Origin: a virus
Taxonomy: Duplodnaviria > Heunggongvirae > Uroviricota > Caudoviricetes
IMG/VR virus record: IMGVR_UViG_2531839530_000005
Coordinates: 1-40,441 of that record
DNA length: 40,441 nucleotides
Direction: 5' to 3' (one strand)
The notes below the pieces were generated by a model that was not told the DNA's origin, did not search any database, and saw only the letters and a list, made by a program, of their open reading frames with translations. Shown here one piece after another: positions 22,117 to 37,043 of the stretch. Position numbers and translations under genes: made by a program. The stretch's first letter is position 1. Each line of letters starts with the position of its first letter.

Positions 22117-22589
22117 ACCTCAATCTCTCTGACCGTTCCGCCAGCTTTTTTAAATCGGGCAATCAGGTCACCGATTTTATGTTCATACTGACCGTAACCT
22201 GCACCAGGTAACGACGCCCAGATATTGCTGCAACGGTCGATTGCCTGACGAATACTGCCGCGGTCAATCATCGGTAAAGCACCACGTTCTTGAATCTGCT
22301 GCAGAGCTACAGCGTCCTGACTTTCTGGAGAAAAATCTTTCAGGCCAAGCTGTTTACGGTAAGCATCCCACCAGCGTGAAAGAAGCTGGTAACGTCCGGC
22401 GGCTGTTGATTTGAGTTTGGGGTTTAGCGTGACAAGTTTGCGGGGGTGATCGGAGTAATCAGTGAACAGTTCGCCACCAACAATAACATCATAACCGTGG
22501 TTACGTGTCGGTTGTCGCCCGTTATCCGTTCCTTCTGACCATGCCACCATATCCAGGAAAGCTTTACGCTGTGAATTTAGTGCCTGCAT
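22113..22589 (-). CDS. Endolysin, lambda R-type lytic transglycosylase
   Basis: Near-identity to recalled lambda R ([44 protein letters not shown]). Confidence 0.9.
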
Positions 22590-22592
22590 AAA

Positions 22593-22943
22593 TTACTCCT
22601 TCGATCTACCAAATTTGTTACCGATTACTCGCATTGCAGCCCCACGAATAGCATCGACACCGATCAGCCCCACGCCACCACCAATGGCAACAGAAAGCGA
22701 TTTAGGCCATCCAACATACTCAAGAGCGGATGCAAAGGTCAGCGTCAGAGCGCCACATAGCAAAATCTCGAGCGTTTTTCGCTTCCAGCCACCACCACCG
22801 CCAAAATAGGCGATGCGCAACCCAGCCATAACGATCGACATAATCACTGCGCCCAGCGGTGTGTCTCCACGCCACCAACTTTGTAAGAGTTCCAGTAAGT
22901 CAGGCCAGGAATGAGGGACATTGTGCATTTTCATAAGCCTCAC
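22593..22943 (-). CDS. Holin with dual-start motif (MRLMKMH)
   Basis: TM segments; immediately upstream of endolysin; Met-Lys-Met dual start. Confidence 0.65.
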   Translation of the reverse strand: MRLMKMHNVPHSWPDLLELLQSWWRGDTPLGAVIMSIVMAGLRIAYFGGGGGWKRKTLEILLCGALTLTFASALEYVGWPKSLSVAIGGGVGLIGVDAIRGAAMRVIGNKFGRSKE

Positions 22944-23151
22944 CTCCGAAAGTTCGGATGGTGCTAAATGTAAGATTCAGGCTCTCTGGCTTGCTCACAA
23001 GAAGTCGAGGATGTTTCCGGAGCCTAACAACGAAAAAGCCCCGGGACATGCCAGGGCCAGATGGAGTACCAGATTAAGCTTCTGGCGGTATATCCTCGTG
23101 TTTGATATCGTTAAATCGCCAAAAGTAACCATATCAATTAAAGGAGTATAT

Positions 23152-23430
23152 ATGGCTAGTTTTACTGTCCGCGTTGAGCTTGTGGGTGCATCATCCGATG
23201 ACTACGCTCGCCTTCATGAGGCGATGGAATCCCGAAGATACTTTCGCGAAATTCAAGATGGAGCAGGAAACTGGTTTTATCTTCCAGACGCTGAGTACAC
23301 AGCCGAAAAAAACGCATCTGCTCGCGCAGTCCGAGAAGAAGTTGTAGCCATCGCTGGGACAATAAAAAAGAACCCTCGGGTGCTAGTCACTCAAGCGGCA
23401 GATCGCTCATGGCATTTAATCAAGAAGTGA
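23152..23430 (+). CDS. Hypothetical protein (93 aa)
   Basis: Strong SD AAGGAG before ATG at 23152; opposite strand to late operon. Confidence 0.4.
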   Translation: MASFTVRVELVGASSDDYARLHEAMESRRYFREIQDGAGNWFYLPDAEYTAEKNASARAVREEVVAIAGTIKKNPRVLVTQAADRSWHLIKK

Positions 23431-23646
23431 GTTTTGATCGCCATTAACGGGTATTCCGTTCCCGCTACGCCCCTCACCAACCTCAGGGGCGCTTTCATAG
23501 CGCTCCATCGCAATAAACGCGGCAGCGATGCAATGCCCCAAATTTTCAAAATCATCCACCCCCGGGTTAGCCCGAGCCACAATGAACTGACCCAGTGTGA
23601 TTTTGGCCTGAGATCGGGAATCAGAAGATAATTCATAAAATTTCAT
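23416..23646 (-). CDS. Hypothetical small protein (76 aa, MKFYELSSDS...)
   Basis: SD GGAGA before ATG; immediately after a terminator hairpin. Confidence 0.35.
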   Translation of the reverse strand: MKFYELSSDSRSQAKITLGQFIVARANPGVDDFENLGHCIAAAFIAMERYESAPEVGEGRSGNGIPVNGDQNSLLD

Positions 23647-23660
23647 GGGTGTTCTCCAGA

Positions 23661-23689
23661 AACAACAAAACCCGCTCAATGGCGGGTTC
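23661..23689 (-). terminator. Rho-independent terminator downstream of KilA-N gene
   Basis: Stem AACCCGC / GCGGGTT with loop TCAATG followed by TTTTGTTGTTT on minus strand. Confidence 0.45.
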
Positions 23690-23783
23690 TGGTAAAGTTC
23701 ATGCGCTTGGTTCGCCTCGCGATACAGCTTTGCGAAGCGTACCGGGATTGAAGCAGTTTATGTGCAAAAATGCAAGAACTTTT

Positions 23784-24359
23784 TTAAAGCTGCATCAACC
23801 TTTCCACCAGTTTATCTCTGCGAACAACAAACCAACCATTGGCTCTCGCCAGTTCCAGCCATGACTCAAGGGAAATAACAATATCATCATCCCGTAACTG
23901 AATTGTGGAAACAGTGACACCGCCTCTCTGATAACAGAGAACTCGCGTGTCGTAACTTTTCTGGCATGAAACTGGCGTTGACGGATCCTTTTGACTGAAA
24001 TAGCAGTCTTCCAGTTTTTCGAACACATCCCATGCCTGATCGGTTTCGAGCATTTTGGCGTGGCGTGCTGCGCCTCGTTCTGTCCAGAGGATGAGGGAGC
24101 GGGCTTTGGGTGAAACTGGATTTTGTGAGTAGTTTAAAGCGACCCGCAATTCTTTAAGGTCATTACCAACAACTTTGAAAAAGTGTTTCCCTTCAACGAA
24201 GCGTACTTTGTTCTCATGATGATTCTGGCGAATACGCACCGGCTCAGTGCCGTAAAGCTGCGCCAAAAGTTCGGTGGTAATAACAGGAATCTGGTTATGG
24301 GTGATCGGGGAGAGAGTTTCAACAGAGATTTGAGTGGTCATAACGATAACTCCGTACAT
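23784..24359 (-). CDS. KilA-N/ORF6N-domain protein (antirepressor-like moron)
   Basis: N-terminal ITTELLAQLYG...VRFVEGKHFFKV motif typical of ORF6N/KilA-N DNA-binding domains. Confidence 0.55.
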   Translation of the reverse strand: MYGVIVMTTQISVETLSPITHNQIPVITTELLAQLYGTEPVRIRQNHHENKVRFVEGKHFFKVVGNDLKELRVALNYSQNPVSPKARSLILWTERGAARHAKMLETDQAWDVFEKLEDCYFSQKDPSTPVSCQKSYDTRVLCYQRGGVTVSTIQLRDDDIVISLESWLELARANGWFVVRRDKLVERLMQL

Positions 24360-24503
24360 TTGGACATTATCGCCACCGTCAGGTGCTAATCATCGTGGTG
24401 GCGAACTGTGCGGGGTTAGCACTACCGGGTACGGAAACCGGCGAGCCTTTCGGCTCCCCCACACAGCCCGCCATAAATCGCGAATGTGACTGTGCAAACG
24501 ATA

Positions 24504-24527
24504 TGAAAAAAAGACGCGGGCGCGTCT
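24504..24527 (-). terminator. tR'-like terminator downstream of Q-like gene
   Basis: Palindrome AGACGCG-GG-CGCGTCT followed by T7 on minus strand, about 60 nt past the predicted promoter. Confidence 0.55.
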
Positions 24528-24589
24528 CATATCGCTCCGTAAACATCCGGGGTGCTAATCCCGACGCCAGATTTTGCTGGCGCGTGAGG

Positions 24590-24619
24590 AATATAGCCCC
24601 GGATAACAGATTGAGTCAA
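24590..24619 (-). promoter_or_regulatory. pR'-like late promoter (-35 TTGACT, 18-nt spacer, -10 TATATT)
   Basis: Read on minus strand; -35 overlaps the Q-like stop codon. Confidence 0.4.
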
Positions 24620-25038
24620 CAGACGGTTTTTAGATCCCCGGAAGAGAATGCATCACGCATCGGTAGATAGAGCATATATTCAGCAAGATTTAGCCATACA
24701 TCTACCCGACTGCAGCACGTCCGGAAACACCACTCGGGGTGTGCATCATTCAACAGTTCAGCCATTTTGCGCTTGGTCATCCCCCTCCCTTCATAGCGTT
24801 GCCGGAGAATGCAAATCAATCCTGGATGCTCTGCCAGCACCTCACTTATGACTCGATCAATACATAACGCCTCTGCATCAGTACAATGCGCCAGCCAGCT
24901 CTTTTGCTTGCCGTTGATCATCTCTCTCAAAAACGCTTCCAGCTCAGCTTTCTCTATTCCCGCTTTTTTCATTCTGCGCAGGGCTTCATTGATGGCTGTT
25001 TTCGTCAATTTTTTGGATGCCAACAACTGATTGAACAT
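24616..25038 (-). CDS. Putative late-gene antiterminator (Q-like)
   Basis: Position upstream of promoter/terminator unit and lysis genes; HTH-like C-terminus; start chosen at Met with AGGA RBS. Confidence 0.45.
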   Translation of the reverse strand: MFNQLLASKKLTKTAINEALRRMKKAGIEKAELEAFLREMINGKQKSWLAHCTDAEALCIDRVISEVLAEHPGLICILRQRYEGRGMTKRKMAELLNDAHPEWCFRTCCSRVDVWLNLAEYMLYLPMRDAFSSGDLKTVC

Positions 25039-25166
25039 ATTTCCTGACCTGCCACCGCCAATATACGACCAGCGCCCCCACATACGCAGTTTGCCCCGAA
25101 TCCAGACACTTTCCAGCGTGGTGAGACGAAGGTGTTCTCCGCTTTTTCCTGTATTCGTTGGGTAAA

Positions 25167-25457
25167 TCACAAATATCCCTCCTTTCTCCAGATTTCTTGT
25201 GTGCGAAAAACACCTTCTGCATGCATCAGGCGTAATTCTTCTTTGGTGTAATCGCTGGTTTTTACCCGCCCGTCGATTAAATCGTGGCATGAGCTACAGG
25301 CAATCGCTGCCTGCATATCGTGTGGTTTTGTCGCTGTTCCGCACGTCCCCGCCAGCCTGTAATGCGCCAGCACAGACGTTTCGGGATTGTGATTGCAGTA
25401 GCCAGGGATTCTGACCTGGCACATCTGGCCCCGCGCCGCTTTACGTAAATCCACCAT
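25167..25457 (-). CDS. Cys-rich nin-region protein (DUF1364/YbcO-like)
   Basis: Cys cluster CQVRIPGYCNH...CSSCHDLIDGR. Confidence 0.5.
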   Translation of the reverse strand: MVDLRKAARGQMCQVRIPGYCNHNPETSVLAHYRLAGTCGTATKPHDMQAAIACSSCHDLIDGRVKTSDYTKEELRLMHAEGVFRTQEIWRKEGYL

Positions 25458-26056
25458 TACGCAAACTCCAGCAGCTGCACGGCCACATTTTCGACTTCCT
25501 CCGGAGAGGAAAATTTACGGAACAGGATCCAGTTCCACAGCACATTCAGTACAGATTTATAAACCTGCTGAAACTCGGTTTCGTCCATGTTCGCAAATGC
25601 GATAGATTTTGCCCTGCGCCCACGACTACCATCAGGATAAATATGCTCGGTGTAAAATCCGGCCTGAATGGTTACCCACTCGCGGAAAGCGTCAAACGAC
25701 TTTAGCAATGCCGTATCCCGGGTTCTGCATGTCGCAACTGTATTAAGGTATTGCTCTGCGGCATCACTCAGGGCTGGAGTGTGTTCCCGACCTACTGATT
25801 CGCACAGGTAATCAACGAAGCCTGATACCAGTTTTCGTTCGCGAGGCGTGATCGCCCCACCGACCGGAGTCCAGTAATCGAATCCCAGTTGCAGGAGTTT
25901 GAAAAAACGCTTGTGAAATGCGTAGTTACGCACACGCTTAAAGTCTGCGTGTATCCACTCACCTATTTTGATTTGATGCAAAAAATCGCAACTCTCCGGC
26001 GTCGCCGGGAGAAGTAATCCGGAAGAGGTTTGTTTGACCAGTTGTATATGCGCCAT
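25457..26056 (-). CDS. nin-region protein (DUF1367-like)
   Basis: 199-aa ORF in conserved lambdoid position upstream of Q. Confidence 0.5.
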   Translation of the reverse strand: MAHIQLVKQTSSGLLLPATPESCDFLHQIKIGEWIHADFKRVRNYAFHKRFFKLLQLGFDYWTPVGGAITPRERKLVSGFVDYLCESVGREHTPALSDAAEQYLNTVATCRTRDTALLKSFDAFREWVTIQAGFYTEHIYPDGSRGRRAKSIAFANMDETEFQQVYKSVLNVLWNWILFRKFSSPEEVENVAVQLLEFA

Positions 26057-26127
26057 CGTAGTTCTCCGCTGGCGCAGTAGAATGGGTGTTCAGCCCGTTA
26101 TGTAGTATACCAGAATTAATGCCAATA

Positions 26128-26379
26128 CTAACATGATGCTCTGACTCGCAATTCATCCAGCAGTTTATCATTTCCCATAATGTCACTTACCCTCATCGGT
26201 AAAAAAATTGCCTTTCGACCATTACGATACATCATTGATTTTGGGGTTTCAGGGAAGTAATCCATTTCGACTATAACTGACAGGTCATCACGACGTATGA
26301 CTGCGTATTTGCTACTAAATAGTCTCTTTATTTTTTCCACGATGCTTCCAGGTTTATAAGTACAAACGGTTATATCCAC
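26128..26379 (-). CDS. Hypothetical protein (Rem-like position), AT-rich
   Basis: 83-aa ORF between hok and nin genes. Confidence 0.35.
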   Translation of the reverse strand: MDITVCTYKPGSIVEKIKRLFSSKYAVIRRDDLSVIVEMDYFPETPKSMMYRNGRKAIFLPMRVSDIMGNDKLLDELRVRASC

Positions 26380-26524
26380 ATAGAGACAAAAATATTAATC
26401 TGAAAAATATTTATTTCACGCCGTATATTTGATTGTTTAATGTGCAGGTACAATGACTTTTATTTTTTGTTGTGTATATAATCAAATATATGGTTATTTT
26501 TCACCCTGCGCATTCAGCGCGCAA

Positions 26525-26548
26525 CAAAAAACCCGCCGAAGCGGGTTT
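26525..26548 (-). terminator. Rho-independent terminator of hok transcript
   Basis: Stem AAACCCGC / GCGGGTTT with loop CGAA followed by T-run on minus strand. Confidence 0.45.
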
Positions 26549-26615
26549 AGTGCGGGTGCGTTGAGGATGCCTGACACATGAGAGGTGGCGAGGGATTTCT
26601 CCCCCGCCTGGTCTC

Positions 26616-26771
26616 TTACTCCTCAGATTCGTAAGCTGTGAAGACAGCAACCTCCGTCTGGCCGGTACGGATTCGTACCTCGCAGAGGTCTTTCCTCGTT
26701 ACCAGTGCCGTCACTATGACGGTTAAACAGATGACGATCAGGGCGATTAACATCGCCTTTTGCTGCTTCAT
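26616..26771 (-). CDS. hok: Hok/Gef-family type I toxin (51 aa)
   Basis: Translation MKQQKAMLIALIVICLTVIVTALVTRKDLCEVRIRTGQTEVAVFTAYESEE; not in the >=60-aa ORF track. Confidence 0.85.
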   Translation of the reverse strand: MKQQKAMLIALIVICLTVIVTALVTRKDLCEVRIRTGQTEVAVFTAYESEE

Positions 26772-26981
26772 AGCCTGCTTCTCCTTGACCTTTCGGTCCG
26801 TAAGAGGCTAATCTCTATGTGTCGCATAGATATGGCCTCAGATTAATGTTAAGCGTCTTGCAGGACGCGTAATGTTAACTGGGGCTTTTCTCTATCTGCC
26901 GTTGGTGTTCATGCCCGAGGCAGATAGCCTCAAGCACCCGCAGCAATTCTACTTAACTCCCGTCACCTCGCCAATATGAAA

Positions 26982-27071
26982 TCAATCAGAAAGGCGATCC
27001 ATAAGAACAACAGCAAGACAATAAATTGCCATTACAGCCGCAATAGCCAGCGCACATTTCAGAACCAGCAC
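26982..27071 (-). CDS. Candidate 29-aa hydrophobic peptide (GTG start, SD GGGAGG)
   Basis: VLVLKCALAIAAVMAIYCLAVVLMDRLSD; strong SD 5 nt upstream. Confidence 0.3.
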   Translation of the reverse strand: MLVLKCALAIAAVMAIYCLAVVLMDRLSD

Positions 27072-27232
27072 GATGACCTCCCATATTTGACGTACACGCG
27101 CATGATTCAATATGCAGCAACCTATTTCCTGCTTCAATATAAAATCAGGTATTGTTGTATAACTATTTAACTAACTCCCTATCCCCACATCTCAGGCGCT
27201 CAACGTCTGTGTGCGGGGCGTTTTTTAATACC

Positions 27233-27316
27233 TTACCCCCAGCGGCAAATCGCATACACCACCAGCGCCACCGCCATTGCAATTCCTACCGTTGTGAATG
27301 CTTCAGGCCATGTCAT
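27233..27316 (-). CDS. Candidate 27-aa hydrophobic peptide (SD GGAGG)
   Basis: MTWPEAFTTVGIAMAVALVVYAICRWG; SD about 10 nt upstream. Confidence 0.3.
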   Translation of the reverse strand: MTWPEAFTTVGIAMAVALVVYAICRWG

Positions 27317-27437
27317 CGTAAAACATCCTCCACACCAACCAGTCCGTTCTGCTTCAGATATTCCATCGCATTATCAGGTAGATTGCTTGATTTATTGACG
27401 CTTTTTAACGAACTGGCTAATCGCTTAACCAACATTG

Positions 27438-27848
27438 TTAATTCGTTAACCTGTTTTCCGGATGCTTGTGGATTGTCAGTTTACCAGAAGTGGCGGTACA
27501 GTCGGCGTTCCCACTCTTATCCTCCTGCGACGGTTTTGCTGCCAACTGACTGGCATATTTGTTAATGGTAACGATAAGCTCTTGCTCGGCCTCATCCAGA
27601 CAATCACCGATACCTCGCCTGTCACCGTCAAAATCATCGAAATCGGCACGAATCCTGGCAACCTCCCGGATTGCGGACAACACTTCACCAGGAATAAGCG
27701 GAGAGTTGCCCGATAGTGCATTCTGCTCCAGTGATGCCAGTGCAATCCGTGCCAGCTCACGAATCTCACCGCCGTCTATATCGTCAATGTCATCACGGCC
27801 AGAAATGTTAGCCAGCCATTGCAGTCGCTCTTTGGTAATAGTGGTCAT
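27438..27848 (-). CDS. Hypothetical acidic protein (Ea22-like position)
   Basis: 136-aa ORF in nin-like region. Confidence 0.4.
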   Translation of the reverse strand: MTTITKERLQWLANISGRDDIDDIDGGEIRELARIALASLEQNALSGNSPLIPGEVLSAIREVARIRADFDDFDGDRRGIGDCLDEAEQELIVTINKYASQLAAKPSQEDKSGNADCTATSGKLTIHKHPENRLTN

Positions 27849-32074: not shown

Positions 32075-32494
32075 ATGGAAAAAGAAAACGAAAAAATTGC
32101 CGCTAGTAGGCTCAATGACAAAATTGCAATGCGTCTTAAAGAGCGCAGGCAGAAGCTTGGTTTATCTCAAGGAAAACTTGCTGAAATCTGCGGATGGACG
32201 CAATCGCGTATAGGTAACTATGAGGCGGGCAGCAGAAATGTTGGAGTGCATGACGCTGTCGTATTGGGAAAGGCTCTTGGCATATCTCCTCCTGAGCTCC
32301 TCTTTGGAGAACAGGAATCTTCTGAATTGTGGTTAAATGAATCCCAACGAAAACTTCTTGAGTTGTTTAACCAGCTACCGGGCTCAGAACAACAACGAAT
32401 GATTGAGCTATTTGAAGTCCGGCTAAAAGAAATCGATGAGTATGTAGAAAAATATTTGAGAGGCAGGCTTAAAGATAATCCCCCACCGGAGTAA
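32075..32494 (+). CDS. Prophage repressor (RacR/CI-like, XRE HTH)
   Basis: HTH LGLSQGKLAEICGWTQSRIGNYEAG; divergent from cro-like gene. Confidence 0.7.
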   Translation: MEKENEKIAASRLNDKIAMRLKERRQKLGLSQGKLAEICGWTQSRIGNYEAGSRNVGVHDAVVLGKALGISPPELLFGEQESSELWLNESQRKLLELFNQLPGSEQQRMIELFEVRLKEIDEYVEKYLRGRLKDNPPPE

Positions 32495-32523
32495 TGATCT
32501 TGCTATCACAGTAATATGCCAAT

Positions 32524-32549
32524 CAGCCCGCTATCAGCGGGCTTTTTTT
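32524..32549 (+). terminator. Rho-independent terminator after repressor gene
   Basis: Stem GCCCGC / GCGGGC with loop TATCA followed by T7. Confidence 0.5.
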
Positions 32550-32578
32550 GTACCATCATCATATGACACCCACCACAA

Positions 32579-32620
32579 AACACATTTCGTGTTGACACAA
32601 GAAAACACATTGTGTTTAAT
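32579..32620 (+). promoter_or_regulatory. pL-like early-left promoter (-35 TTGACA, -10 TTTAAT) flanked by AACAC-N-GTGTT operators
   Basis: TTGACA at 32592-32597, 17-nt spacer, TTTAAT at 32615-32620; palindromes at 32579-32593 and 32603-32617. Confidence 0.45.
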
Positions 32621-32794
32621 AAGCATATCCAAACAACGCCCCACCAGAGAACGGCAGGACAATACCTCGAGTTATCCAGCCACTGAACAGGGCTAAGTAG
32701 CCAGCCTGAGGCATACGAACATGACGGCAGTTGTTGATTGATACAAAGCGCAGTAGATAAAACGTTCCGCCACCCGGCGTTAAGGGGAAAAAAG

Positions 32795-33013
32795 ATGGTT
32801 GGTGAAGATCTGGTTGTTATTAACGGTCAATTGTGCAGCAAAGATGTGGCAGCCATGCTTATTAGCAAGGTTCTTCCAACTGTGCTGGATGTCATTGCAG
32901 AAAAAGTAAAGGCTGGTCGTCCAGACAAGGAAGTTGAAGAGGCGGCAAAAACAGTTGTTCATGCCGCTACAGAAGCAATTATTTTGAAGAGCCTAGTTTC
33001 GCCCAAGCCTTAA
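32795..33013 (+). CDS. Hypothetical early protein (72 aa)
   Basis: SD AAGGGG before ATG; first gene after pL-like promoter. Confidence 0.35.
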   Translation: MVGEDLVVINGQLCSKDVAAMLISKVLPTVLDVIAEKVKAGRPDKEVEEAAKTVVHAATEAIILKSLVSPKP

Positions 33014-33173
33014 GTGAATCGGCGCTTTTTTTAGCATCACGTTCATTGAGTAGTGACAAAAACTCATTCTCAGCATTCTCGATTTCCGAGAAAAATTCTT
33101 GATGAGTTGTTTCTCGCTGCGATCTGATGCTGAAAGCTAAAGCAAGTAGCCAGGCTTTGTCTTTATTATCCAT
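32979..33173 (-). CDS. Hypothetical small protein on opposite strand to early-left operon
   Basis: 64-aa ORF with plausible SD. Confidence 0.3.
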   Translation of the reverse strand: MDNKDKAWLLALAFSIRSQRETTHQEFFSEIENAENEFLSLLNERDAKKSADSLKAWAKLGSSK

Positions 33174-33568
33174 CGGAATACCTTATTACTGGTTGTGTGA
33201 GAACTCCAGTATACCACCGAGCCTGAAGTGGTAAAAAGACAGGCGCACAACACGAAGGCGCATTTCCGGTATTCATAAAGAGTCGGTCTTGTCTGTTAAA
33301 TTTAAATGGTGGGAGTGCGCCTCCGGTTGTAAATAACGACATTGCTATGTGTAGTCTTTGGCGGCATCAGTTCTACTCCGTGGCTGCCCTGTCGCCCCTT
33401 TTTAAAGTGAATTTTGTGATGCGGTGAATGCGGCTAAGCGCACGCGGCACAGTTAAAAGCATCAGTGTTATGGGTGGATTATCCGGCGTTAATTGTTAAC
33501 TGGTTAACGTCACCTGGAGGCACCAGGCACCGCATCGACAAAATTCATTTGTAAAAATGGAGATAATT

Positions 33569-33790
33569 ATGATTGCTCATCACTTCGGAACTGATGAAAT
33601 ACCACGTCAGTGTGTGACCCCTGGCGATTATGTTCTTCATGAAGGTCGGACATATATCGCCTCGGCAAACAATATTAAAAAGCGAAAACTTTATATTCGT
33701 AGCCTGACTACAAAAACATGCATTTCTGACTGCATGATTAAAGTCTTCCTCGGTCGTGATGGTTTACCTGTAAAGGCGGAGTCATGGTAA
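33569..33790 (+). CDS. kilR: KilR-like cell-division (FtsZ) inhibitor
   Basis: [44 protein letters not shown]... recalled as near-identical to Rac KilR. Confidence 0.8.
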
Positions 33791-33960
33791 TGACTAAGAA
33801 AATAAAATGTGCTTATCACCTTTGCAATAAAGAAATTGAAGAAAGCAAAATCATTACAAGACCACTTCATTTCATGCGTGGAGTTATACCAACGACGGAA
33901 ATGAAAAAATATTGTAGTGAAATCTGTGCCGAAAAAGACCAGATGGCACACGAACTTTAA
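33790..33960 (+). CDS. ydaE: YdaE-like small Cys-rich protein (56 aa)
   Basis: [20 protein letters not shown]...YCSEICAEKDQMAHEL; not in ORF track; coordinates approximate to within 1-2 nt. Confidence 0.45.
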   Translation: MTKKIKCAYHLCNKEIEESKIITRPLHFMRGVIPTTEMKKYCSEICAEKDQMAHEL

Positions 33961-34034
33961 TTAACTGACTATCCGAAACTGAATTTATGCCAGCAATGGC
34001 AGGGATTCGCTCAACCTTAATTAAGGAGAAAAAC

Positions 34035-34310
34035 ATGATTACCAGTTATGAAGCCACTGTTGTTACTACTGATGACATTGTTCACGAAGTCAGCCTGGAA
34101 GGAAAGCGTATTGGCTACGTGATTAAAACAGAAAATAAAGAAGCCCCTTTCACTGTGGTTGATATCGACGGTCCATCAGGCAACGTTAAAACACTTAACG
34201 AAGGCGTCAAAAAAATGTGCCTAGTGCATATCGGAAAGAATCTGCCCGCAGAAAAAAAAGCCGAATTTCTGGCAACTCTGATTGCAATGAAATTAAAAGG
34301 GGAAATCTGA
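34035..34310 (+). CDS. racC: RacC-like protein
   Basis: MITSYEATVVTTDDIVHEV... recalled as matching Rac RacC. Confidence 0.7.
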   Translation: MITSYEATVVTTDDIVHEVSLEGKRIGYVIKTENKEAPFTVVDIDGPSGNVKTLNEGVKKMCLVHIGKNLPAEKKAEFLATLIAMKLKGEI

Positions 34311-34409
34311 AGAAATAGCCTGCGTATGACGCAGGCTATGAACAGTGTGTATCCGGCAAGATTATTCACTGAACAAACGAATTTTAATCTGAGTTGAGGT
34401 TAAAAAACA

Positions 34410-37043
34410 ATGAGCACCGATAAACAAGTTTACCCACTGTATTACGAAGCAAAAAATGACAAAGTAAGAAAACGTCTCGGTATTAAAGGCGGTTTTTACT
34501 GGGCTGAAGCGAAAAAATTATCCATTGCCATCTCCCGTGGTGCTGTTGCGATTGACGATGCTGGCTACGATGAAGATGACTTCAAAAAACCTGTTCGCGT
34601 CAATTTGCCCGTTGTTGATGACCTCCCGCCAGAAGGCGTATTTGATACGGAATTCTGCAACCGTTACGAAAAAGGCGGGGAAGATGGCATCACAATGGTA
34701 TTTATCGCGCCCTCACCCTCTGCGCAGGGCAAACCAGCCAGCACTGACAACACCAATGTTAATGGCGAAGACATGACGGAGATTGAGGAGAATATGCTAC
34801 TCCCGATTTCTGGCCAGGAGCTGCCCATTCGCTGGCTTGCTCAACACGGCAGCGAAAAACCGGTAACGCACGTTTCACGCGACGAACTCCAGGCATTACA
34901 CATTGCACGGGCTGAGGAACTACCAGCTGTTACTGCCCTGGCTGTTTCCCACAAAACCAGCCTGCTCGATCCGCTGGAAATTCGCGATCTCCACAAACTG
35001 GTGCGTGATACTGACAGAGTTTTCCCTAATCCAGGCAATTCAAGCCTGGGGCTGATGACTGCTTTTTTCGAAGCATACATGGACGCAGACTACACCGATC
35101 GCGGTCTGCTGACAAAAGAGTGGATGAAAGGAAATCGTGTTTCACGCATCACGCGCACGGCTTCCGGCGCTAATGCTGGCGGCGGGAACCTCACCGATCG
35201 CGGCGAAGGTTTCGTTCACGATCTGACGTCACTGGCGCGCGACGTAGCCACTGGCGTACTGGCCCGTTCAATGGACGTGGACATTTATAACCTTCATCCG
35301 GCACACGCTAAACGTGTCGAGGAAATTATCGCTGAAAATAAACCGCCCTTTTCTGTTTTCCGCGACAAATTCATCACCATGCCTGGCGGGCTGGATTATT
35401 CCCGTGCCATCGTGGTTGCGTCCGTAAAAGAAGCACCAATTGGGATCGAGGTTATCCCCGCACACGTCACTGAATATCTGAACAAAGTACTGACTGAAAC
35501 TGATCATGCCAACCCTGATCCAGAAATCGTGGATATTGCCTGCGGTCGTTCCTCTGCCCCGATGCCGCAGCGTGTAACAGAAGAAGAAAAACAGGATGAT
35601 GAAGAAAAACTGCAACCATCTTGCGCAATGGCAGATGAACAGGCAACGGCTGAAACAGTGGAACCGGATGCAACTGAACATCATCAGGACACGCAGCCGC
35701 TGGATGCTCAGTCACAGGTAAATTCTGTTGATGCGAAATATCAGAAACTGCGGGCAGAACTCCATGAAGCCCGGAAAAACATTCCGCCCAAAAATCCTGT
35801 CGATGCAGACAAATTACTGGCTGCCTCTCGCGGAGAATTTGTTGAAGGGATTAGCGACCCGAACGATCCGAAATGGGTTAAGGGGATCCAGACTCGCGAT
35901 TCTGTGTACCAGAACCAGCCAGAAACGGAAAAAATCAGCCCGGATGCGAAACAACCTGAGCCAGTAGTGCAACAGGAACCGGAAATAGTCTGCAATGCCT
36001 GCGGTCAGACTGGCGGGGATAACTGCCCTGACTGTGGTGCGGTGATGGGCGACGCAACATACCAGGAAACATTCGGTGAAGAGAATCAGGTTGAAGCTAA
36101 GGAAAAAGATCCGGAGGAAATGGAAGGCGCTGAACATCCGCACAATGAGAATGCTGGCAGCGATCCGCATCGCGATTGCAGTGATGAAACTGGCGAAGTC
36201 GCAGATCCCGTAATCGTAGAAGACATAGAGCCAGGTATTTATTACGGAATTTCGAATGAGAATTACCACGCGGGTCCCGGTGTCAGTAAGTCTCAGCTCG
36301 ATGACATTGCTGATACTCCGGCACTGTATTTGTGGCGTAAAAATGCCCCCGTGGACACTACAAAGACAAAAACGCTCGATTTAGGAACCGCTTTCCACTG
36401 CCGGGTACTTGAACCGGAAGAATTCAGTAACCGCTTTATCGTAGCACCTGAATTTAACCGCCGTACAAACGCCGGAAAAGAAGAAGAGAAAGCGTTTCTG
36501 ATGGAATGCGCAAGCACAGGAAAAACGGTTATCACTGCGGAAGAAGGCCGGAAAATTGAACTCATGTATCAAAGCGTTATGGCTTTGCCGCTGGGGCAAT
36601 GGCTTGTTGAAAGCGCCGGACACGCTGAATCATCAATTTACTGGGAAGATCCGGAAACAGGAATTTTGTGTCGGTGCCGTCCGGACAAAATTATTCCTGA
36701 ATTTCACTGGATCATGGACGTGAAAACCACAGCGGATATTCAACGATTCAAAACGGCTTATTACGACCACCGCTATCACGTTCAGGATGCATTCTACAGT
36801 GACGGTTATGAAGCACAGTTTGGCGTGCTGCCAACTTTCGTTTTTCTGGTTGCCAGCACAACTGTTGAATGCGGACGTTACCCGGTTGAGATTTTCATGA
36901 TGGGCGAAGAAGCAAAACTGGCAGGCCAGCAGGAATATCACCGCAATCTGAGGACCCTGGCTGACTGCCTGAATACCGATGAATGGCCAGCTATTAAAAC
37001 GTTATCACTGCCCCGCTGGGCTAAGGAGTATGCAAATGACTAA
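34410..37043 (+). CDS. recE: Exonuclease VIII (RecE)
   Basis: 877-aa ORF with long stretches recalled as matching K-12 RecE, including C-terminal nuclease domain. Confidence 0.9.

Follow-up and report, generated by a model that had tools for sequence, protein, structure and literature searches.

The locus described here lies on the minus strand of a 40,441-nucleotide (nt) Caudoviricetes record (IMGVR_UViG_2531839530_000005, analysed over its whole length and hereafter called the window), and its closest described relatives are the isrK-anrP region of the prophage Gifsy-1 and the immI operon of phage P1. The Gifsy-1 order is Q (PF06323), c4-a1b1/isrK, C4, STM2616 (anrP) and isrJ. Transcripts of its anrP start at the isrK promoter, P_isrK, and read through the IsrK terminator, anrP is left untranslated until IsrK is given in trans, and AnrP raises the RNA of the antQ operon and induces the prophage (PMC4825925). 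The region named orf45 gives rise to STnc1160, an RNA of about 80 nt that is processed and stable, and the authors likened the system to the CI RNA of P4 and not to P1 c4 (PMC4825925). The annotated order of P1 immI is promoter (P51b), a1, b1, c4, a2, b2, icd and ant (ant1/2). IsrK and c4 are listed side by side as separate systems in a 2025 review (PMC12197685), and a literature search for papers linking isrK with C4 returned only an unrelated list.

Region 24619-23784 of the window is probably a self-contained, immI-like antirepressor cassette, placed between a Q-like antiterminator gene and the probable late promoter (Table 1). The assignment is carried by RNA-family membership, co-variation of the target sites, homology of the encoded protein to AnrP, and the insertion pattern among related loci; the homologues suggest what the cassette would do and how. 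The kind of locus is already known, being the same as P1 immI and Gifsy-1 isrK-anrP. The window is 100% identical to the chromosome of Escherichia coli strain 300709 (NZ_CP025903.1), where a Rac-like lambdoid prophage occupies the interval between yebY and pphA. In RefSeq the two main proteins are called 'ORF6N domain-containing protein' and 'DUF1133 family protein', and no RNA genes are annotated.

Table 1. Features of the antirepressor cassette and its surroundings, in positions of the window.
Feature	Position	Strand	Remarks
isrK promoter (P_isrK)	-35 TTGACT 24619-24614; -10 TATATT 24595-24590	-	18-nt spacer; 10/12 consensus
IsrK-like leader small RNA	24506-24583	-	Rfam isrK RF01394
isrK Rfam match	24583-24507	-	74.4 bits, cutoff 50, E 3.6e-15, full-length model
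c4-a1b1 (RF03163) Rfam match	24596-24544	-	49.8 bits, cutoff 46.7, E 1.1e-10
IsrK hairpin 1	24583-24564	-	
IsrK hairpin 2	24563-24547	-	loop holds site a1
Site a1, UUAGCAC	24558-24552	-	loop of IsrK hairpin 2
Site b1, UACGGAG	24541-24535	-	IsrK linker
IsrK intrinsic terminator	24528-24506	-	stem 24528-24511, then T-run; earlier read as tR'
C4-type antisense RNA	24394-24478	-	Rfam C4 RF01695, 78 bits, cutoff 45, E 1.1e-14, full-length model
C4 outer stem, 16-17 bp	24472-24457 with 24415-24400	-	then ACCA at 24399-24396
C4 hairpin 1	24456-24443	-	
C4 hairpin 2	24442-24424	-	loop b'
Site b', UUUCCGUAC	24437-24429	-	loop of C4 hairpin 2
Site a', GUGCUAA	24422-24416	-	C4 single strand
Site a2, UUAGCAC	24389-24383	-	downstream of C4
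Site b2, GUACGGAG	24357-24350	-	includes Shine-Dalgarno GGAG 24353-24350
Upstream open reading frame (uORF), 31 codons	24379-24474	-	AUG at C4 5' end; positional counterpart of Gifsy-1 orf45
ORF6N-domain protein, AnrP-like putative antirepressor, 185 amino acids	23784-24341	-	Pfam, PHROG, BLASTP; RefSeq WP_001737244.1
Second promoter/leader/terminator unit	23659-23775	-	positional analogue of Gifsy-1 isrJ
Second unit -35, TTGCAT	23775-23770	-	then 17-nt spacer
Second unit extended -10, TGcTTCAAT	23755-23747	-	
Second unit transcribed segment, GCTTCGCAAAGCTGTATCGCGAGGCG	23738-23713	-	near-invariant across loci
Second unit terminator	23691-23666 and T tract	-	terminator scan
Q-like antiterminator gene, DUF1133 family, 184 amino acids	24616-25170	-	Pfam, PHROG
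Prophage repressor candidate, 139 amino acids, helix-turn-helix only	32075-32494	+	Pfam HTH_3 4.7e-13
YbcO-type nuclease gene	25457-25167	-	directly before Q-like gene
DUF1367 gene	26056-25457	-	gene order of window
76-amino-acid open reading frame, function unassigned, phrog_26625	23646-23416	-	converges with YmfI-family gene
YmfI-family gene	23152-23430	+	antisense, between probable late promoter and holin

The 240 nt between the Q-like and ORF6N genes contain three Rfam families above the curated gathering cutoffs, in a scan that covered 22500-27500. A promoter with the hexamers TTGACT and TATATT and a terminator at 24504-24527 had been proposed here from the letters alone, and both are present, the promoter being an isrK promoter conserved across loci. 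Taken by themselves, consensus matches of this sort are within chance: the promoter scan gave 2 sites against 2.7 ± 1.6 in shuffled sequences, and the terminator scan 4 against 2.4 ± 1.6. Promoter and leader are significant because of the Rfam matches, conservation in dozens of loci, and a start at the mapped Gifsy-1 position. The isrK model begins at 24583, 7 nt past the -10 hexamer, matching the position of the Gifsy-1 transcription start as deduced from the mutation numbering in PMC4825925, and the predicted start of IsrK is G24583. The core of P_isrK, hexamers plus spacer (TTATCCGGGGC), is kept in Gifsy-1, in Shiga toxin (Stx) 2a phages, and in about 50 loci that encode a DUF1133-type Q. 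The 254-nt leader folds with a z-score of -5.19 relative to shuffled sequences.

Within the C4-type RNA, a' is complementary to a1 and to a2, which are identical, and b' is complementary to UACGGA of b1 and GUACGGA of b2; the Shine-Dalgarno sequence covered by b2 stands 8 nt ahead of the ORF6N start codon. The paired a...b motif occurs in only two places on this strand of the 40-kb window, and its complement only in C4. The acceptor-like GCCACCA end was also considered as part of a tRNA and rejected, as it belongs to C4 and a tRNA scan of the whole window found none.

Co-variation of these sites was followed in 91 loci encoding relatives of the DUF1133 Q, together with Gifsy-1, a Stx2a phage and P1; 27 distinct leaders were aligned, and 13-14 distinct leader variants were compared for co-variation. 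Six a-classes and about 5-6 b-classes were found. The a-classes, given as a1/a'/a2, are UUAGCAC/GUGCUAA/UUAGCAC, UUGGCGU/ACGCCAA/UUGGCGU, UUGGAAC/GUUCCAA/UUGGAAC, UUAGGAAC/GUUCCUAA/UUAGGAAC, UUUGCAC/GUGCAAA/UUUGCAC and UUGGUCU/AGACCAA/UUGGUCU, and the b-classes include UACGGA, GAAAAAGG, UCACCG, UCGAAAC and UCAACC. In most classes the copies in the leader, in C4 and at the start region change together, the exception being the class with GGUUUC in the b' loop, where complementarity to b1 falls to 3-4 nt; a and b classes have been recombined between loci. Cognate partners have on average 27.3 complementary nt over the four sites taken together, and permuted partners 16.8 ± 1.3 nt; 0 of 20000 permutations reached the cognate value. 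The consensus fold of C4, drawn from 13 variants including P1 c4, shows compensatory double changes in 10 of its 27 pairs. A matrix of RNAduplex energies (C4 core versus targets) gave cognate means of -31.6 versus -24.0 kcal/mol for the IsrK sites and -24.5 versus -18.4 kcal/mol for the downstream sites, but it is noisy, as GC-rich hairpin stems also pair, and exact-complement tables and the permutation test were for this reason used instead. Together these comparisons are strong evidence, at the level of sequence, that the pairings of C4 with the leader and with the start site are functional.

The protein itself had been labelled KilA-N/ORF6N, of which the second half holds (PF10543, E 2.7e-20), the KilA-N model (PF04383) giving no Pfam match at E<0.01. 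ORF6N is a family related to KilA-N but separate. The best PHROG family is phrog_2379, 'anti-repressor' (E 3.2e-94), and all top PHROG families carry that annotation. Gifsy-1 AnrP (STM2616) aligns over the full length with 57% identity (E 7e-66), which fits the antirepressor-type protein foreseen in the sequence-only reading (PMC4825925); conservation covers the N-terminus and the ORF6N core, and about the last third (residues 119-185) diverges. An alternative ATG lies at 24359, and the Prokaryotic Genome Annotation Pipeline (PGAP) picks the one at 24341. BLASTP found no similarity to P1 Ant1 (E 13), for which reason a complete homologue of immI was rejected as a reading of the cassette; no NCBIfam model matched the ORF6N or the Q-like protein, and a sequence search of the PDB with the ORF6N protein returned nothing at E<=1.

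Even if the RNA control is as proposed, the ORF6N protein might have a role other than that of antirepressor of this prophage: regulation of some other kind through DNA binding, action on co-resident prophages alone, or toxicity as an effector of the abortive-infection type. Its domain is a predicted DNA-binding module of many contexts, it matches no solved structure and no NCBIfam model, its divergent part is poorly conserved with AnrP, and several related loci have an interrupted copy of the gene, which could mean that it is costly to carry. We consider such a role unlikely: the nearest studied homologue, AnrP, induces its prophage and raises early-operon transcripts (PMC4825925), the PHROG annotations agree on an anti-repressor, the genes under C4-type control in P1 and P7 encode antirepressors, and the resident repressor is without a self-cleavage domain. 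That repressor candidate, encoded divergently from a Cro-like gene at 31978-31736, has no S24 peptidase domain in Pfam and would therefore need an antirepressor for induction, as has been reported for the Gifsy repressors (cited in PMC4825925); by analogy it is the putative target of the ORF6N protein, and a repressor with a helix-turn-helix only fits induction by way of an antirepressor.

The Q-like gene had been recognised between 24616 and 25038, and its Q-like nature is borne out by homology, although that extent is too short: the coding sequence runs from 25170 to 24616, its GTG start overlapping the YbcO stop codon. The protein belongs to the family DUF1133, aligned over positions 1-175 of 176 with E 1.6e-105, and the PHROG match is 'anti-termination protein Q-like' (6.4e-80). 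The Q21 family PF06530 matches weakly, at 24.6 bits, just below its 26-bit cutoff, which an orthologue in a related locus (L001) exceeds with 27.4 bits, and the Q21 structures 6P18 and 6JNX give weak phmmer matches (E 0.017). The assignment as Q is owed to this homology and not to the promoter/terminator unit that follows; the support which that unit had been thought to lend adds nothing, P_isrK not being tied to one Q family.

It had also been proposed that the unit is a pR'/tR' pair and that the ORF6N gene occupies the position of stx in Stx phages. Accordingly worded, P_isrK would be a Q-dependent pR', 24528-24506 the tR', and the ORF6N gene the first cargo of the late operon, abundant only after Q acts. 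The arrangement gives this some appeal, with an ORF6N gene between Q and the holin and a unit that begins precisely at the stop codon of Q, where pR' begins in lambdoid phages; the TGA stop falls within the -35 hexamer. In Gifsy-1 a Q of another family stands in the same relation to the unit, the RNA that follows the promoter is short and terminated, as are lambda 6S and StxS (PMC7547250), and, speculatively, a -10-like CAAAAT at +7 to +12 could give a sigma-dependent pause.

Comparison of the loci points elsewhere. Q proteins are specific for their own promoter. A nearly identical P_isrK and leader adjoins the unrelated Q family PF06323 in Gifsy-1, and in Stx phages the isrK cassette is found some 3 kb before Q, within the nin region, where the order is NinE-like, isrK, C4, ORF6N genes, roi, ninG, Q, tRNAs; because P_isrK serves two Q families and sits upstream of Q in Stx phages, it is probably not Q-cognate and more likely the promoter of a small-RNA gene. 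About 50 of the DUF1133-Q loci have Q followed by the isrK-C4-ORF6N cassette. In about 35 others (L001, L008, L009, L012-14 and L067-L096, among them the isolated phage vB_EcoS-666R9) the cassette and P_isrK are absent, the match to Q extends to residue ~176, and a unit of the second type stands 26-90 nt after Q. This unit has -35 TTGCAT or TTGATT and a terminator whose sequence varies and whose hairpin is kept, and it is retained downstream in every complete cassette-bearing locus; in the window its terminator is the one that had been noticed after the ORF6N gene. Likewise, in cassette-less phages with PF06323 Q genes, the promoter and 5' part of Gifsy-1 isrJ come immediately after the Q stop codon, just before the holin. 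No isrJ (RF01393) or other Rfam match was obtained in 23800-23640 at E<=1.

Unit 23775-23659 is thus the best candidate, judged by its conserved position, for a Q-dependent pR'/tR', and the ORF6N gene most likely lies upstream of the late promoter and not in the stx slot, because cassette-less loci join Q straight to the second unit. We infer that isrJ-type units are family-specific pR'/tR' units and that the cassette was inserted between Q and pR' at least twice; the short isrJ-type transcripts would then be analogous to lambda 6S or StxS (PMC7547250). The late-cargo interpretation further leaves the full C4 antisense system in the leader unexplained, with C4 and its target sites lying between isrK and a gene supposed to be expressed only on induction, and its timing is at odds with the Gifsy-1 homologue, which acts upstream of Q as AnrP raises antQ transcription (PMC4825925). 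We therefore hold it improbable; the apparent pR' is more likely a small-RNA promoter, and the apparent late cargo an RNA-gated switch atop the induction cascade.

The TGA stop of Q was found to be built from the TTGA of the following -35 in 3 of 3 contexts, whether P_isrK or an isrJ-like unit follows (window 24616-24619; Gifsy-1, L005 34349-34354; L001 3069-3073). As the Q stop lies in the -35 of either following promoter, the -35 region may be a recombination joint for insertion of the cassette. Further downstream, a conserved terminator-like element was seen at 23058-23037 just upstream of the holin. The promoter/terminator-like element at 23135-23030 before the holin was considered as a general partner of Q and set aside, many loci with the same Q being without it.

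Under the cassette reading, the homologues suggest the following course of events. P_isrK would fire, and most transcripts would end at 24528-24506, yielding an IsrK of about 77 nt with a1 and b1; a minority would read through and contain the C4-type RNA, which, with its acceptor-stem-like helix and ACCA, would presumably be excised by RNase P as in P1. Sites b' and a' of C4 would pair with b2 and a2 of the same mRNA species, and this pairing would hide the ORF6N Shine-Dalgarno sequence, so that the protein would not be made in the lysogen. Excess IsrK would compete for C4 through a1 and b1 and relieve the block, and the ORF6N protein would then act as an antirepressor, probably on the prophage's non-cleavable helix-turn-helix repressor, turning on early transcription, then Q, and then the late genes from the 23775-23659 unit. 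It is by analogy with P1 and Gifsy-1 that we propose the processing by RNase P, the repression of translation, the role of IsrK as a decoy, and the activity and target of the antirepressor.

Published mutants of Gifsy-1 bear on this scheme. The reported pairs G28-C162 and G31-C159 map exactly onto a1-a'. The double mutants isrK-G28A/orf45-C162U and G31A/C159U fail to restore repression, with 224 and 327 units against 4 in the wild type (PMC4825925, Table 1D), an outcome that is expected if a' must also pair with the unmutated a2. In this region of Gifsy-1 (L005 34316-34100) the a2 site is UUGGCGU, at about +190, and this explanation was not considered in PMC4825925.

Several points weigh against the cassette reading or parts of it. 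The a1 mutation G28A, in cis, lifts basal translation of anrP from 4 to 93 units, which the authors explained by an intramolecular inactive fold (PMC4825925), and a1/b1 may accordingly act mainly in cis; co-expression of the orf45/STnc1160 fragment with IsrK made growth arrest stronger, not weaker (PMC4825925). A pure decoy model leaves both results unexplained. No icd-like gene was found at the locus, and the effector is unrelated to P1 Ant. The target of the ORF6N protein could differ from that of AnrP because the C-terminal third is poorly conserved, and the prophage looks partly degraded, so the circuit may no longer yield phage. The hexamers of the second unit are weak (3/6 and 4/6), helped by the TG of the extended -10, the consensus scan did not pick this promoter, neither a pause element nor a Q-binding element is assignable in the unit, and its naming as pR'/tR' comes only from conserved adjacency.

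The model published for Gifsy-1 works without a processed C4: the mRNA adopts alternative folds, anrP is coupled to the uORF orf45, and IsrK opens the ribosome-binding site of the uORF in trans. There, mutations of the orf45 start or an early stop cut the IsrK-dependent activation of anrP, and IsrK helps binding of 30S at orf45 (PMC4825925); the window has an AUG at the same place, the 5' end of C4. The frame varies across variants from 14 to 60 amino acids or is open-ended, and the uORF is, from its sequence, probably not a conserved coding gene. In the window 37 nt separate its stop from the ORF6N ATG downstream, and coupling of stop to start in the manner of Gifsy-1 therefore cannot operate here; with a variable frame such coupling cannot be the general mechanism. 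The coupling model also makes no use of the conserved RNA fold or of the three-way complementarity that includes a2 and b2 on the Shine-Dalgarno sequence, and Salmonella does have such a processed and stable RNA, STnc1160, of ~80 nt. As an account of this locus we judge it very unlikely, slightly more so than the late-cargo interpretation.

The cassette is widespread in E. coli: of 5426 complete genomes, 127 have the exact arrangement and 2013 have parts of it, Stx phages included. Two prophages, in Salmonella enterica CP191473 (L010) and in L042, each have a pair of isrK-C4-ORF6N cassettes that differ in a/b class; the nin region holds one, and the other follows Q. The nin-region cassette of the Stx2a phage LC616031 (L002, 4000-5600) has two tandem ORF6N genes, the first truncated (4256-4621) and the second (4887-5561) preceded by an Rfam sRNA-Xcc1 match at 4764-4847 (75.7 bits) that may be a second C4-like RNA. 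In five loci (L006, L007, L018, L020 and L023) unrelated DNA of 0.8-2.4 kb, possibly an insertion-sequence element, truncates or splits the ORF6N gene, at points from ~50 nt past the start to upstream of the start codon; this suggests recurrent inactivation of the antirepressor gene. DNA 89-96% identical to the window region occurs in PP818812.1, 'Actinobacillus phage vB_Apl-pPE4' (L003), which carries hok/sok, YbcO, Q, isrK, C4 and ORF6N, and in a metagenome-assembled contig assigned to 'Candidatus Nanosynbacter' (L011); the hosts stated for these two look doubtful, with contamination or mis-assignment possible.

Around the cassette, the minus-strand order past the YmfI-family gene is holin, lysozyme and Rz/Rz1. 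A hokD/sok type I toxin-antitoxin module lies at 26616-26939 on the minus strand, upstream of nin-like genes (Rfam sok, 101 bits; Hok reading frame 26771-26616). A sub-threshold 'isrK' match at 26526-26607 (30.6 bits) was dismissed as the 3' hairpins of hok mRNA and a terminator. In the tail region of the source genome NZ_CP025903.1 (locus 32370-35921), PGAP flags several genes as pseudogenes or fragments, among them structural genes that are truncated and pieces of an integrase gene and of a LexA-family gene, and the source prophage is probably defective.

As a tentative extension, the isrK, C4 and effector-start sites may form a three-copy, two-element address code that sets private immunity types of antirepressor cassettes among lambdoid prophages of E. 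coli, Shigella and Salmonella, with IsrK as a class-specific decoy of C4. If so, prophages of the same class in one cell would cross-silence or cross-induce each other and other classes would be insulated, Gifsy-1 IsrK/orf45 and P1 c4 would be one system, and a cassette wedged between Q and the late promoter may feed early read-through into antirepressor synthesis. The cassette could affect prophage induction and toxin release, since ~2000 of the 5426 complete E. coli genomes have all or part of it, Stx phages included. The unification of P1 and Gifsy-1, the multi-class address code and the insertion site between Q and pR' are by-products of the analysis and not categorically new.

Among more distant systems, the sar/ant region of P22 and the CI RNA of P4 (seqA/seqC) likewise have a small phage RNA, made from the same operon and pairing with sites before and/or after itself, that silences antirepressor or replication genes in the lysogen. 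Their RNAs belong to other families, neither of which was detected here, and lead to other outcomes: P4 CI terminates transcription, and sar acts as a genuine cis-antisense RNA. The IpeX small RNA of DLP12, presumably placed just after the related quuD gene, is a lead only, a literature search having found nothing. The stx slot (Q - pR' - tR'/StxS - tRNAs - stx; PMC7547250) resembles the window in having a gene between Q and the lysis genes with a short terminated RNA before it. It differs in that the homologous isrK-C4-ORF6N cassette of Stx phages is upstream of Q in the nin region, and that the unit partnering the DUF1133 Q in the window lies downstream of the ORF6N gene.

With Gifsy-1, antQ-isrK-orf45(STnc1160)-anrP-isrJ, the window shares the gene order, the place directly after Q with the Q stop inside the -35, a near-identical isrK promoter followed by an isrK that matches the full-length model, a C4-type RNA at the position of orf45/STnc1160, an AnrP-type protein, and a second promoter/small-RNA/terminator unit after the gene; the long transcript is predicted at ~920 nt, against ~910 nt reported for Gifsy-1. 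The two differ in Q family (DUF1133 versus PF06323, Q82-type), in site classes (UUAGCAC/UACGGA versus UUGGCGU/UCACCG) and in the uORF, which is uncoupled here, whereas the 45-codon orf45 has a stop that overlaps the anrP ATG. The downstream unit, without a match to Rfam isrJ, is a positional analogue of other sequence.

The differences from P1 and P7 immI lie in the effector, Ant1/Ant2 being unrelated to the ORF6N protein; in icd, which is coupled to ant there, whereas here b2 covers the effector's own Shine-Dalgarno sequence; in the C1 operator, none of which is evident in the window; and in the element, P1 being a plasmid prophage and the present one a lambdoid, Rac-like prophage. The layout is the same, with a two-hairpin a1/b1 leader and a terminator-like hairpin, C4, and then a2/b2, and in both b2 lies on the Shine-Dalgarno sequence of the first gene. 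P1 c4 and the RNA of the window are both members of Rfam C4 with a common consensus fold, and the comparison in this way connects the IsrK system of Gifsy-1 to P1 immI. In the heteroimmunity of P1 and P7, specificity classes are set by the sequence of the sites, and likewise here.

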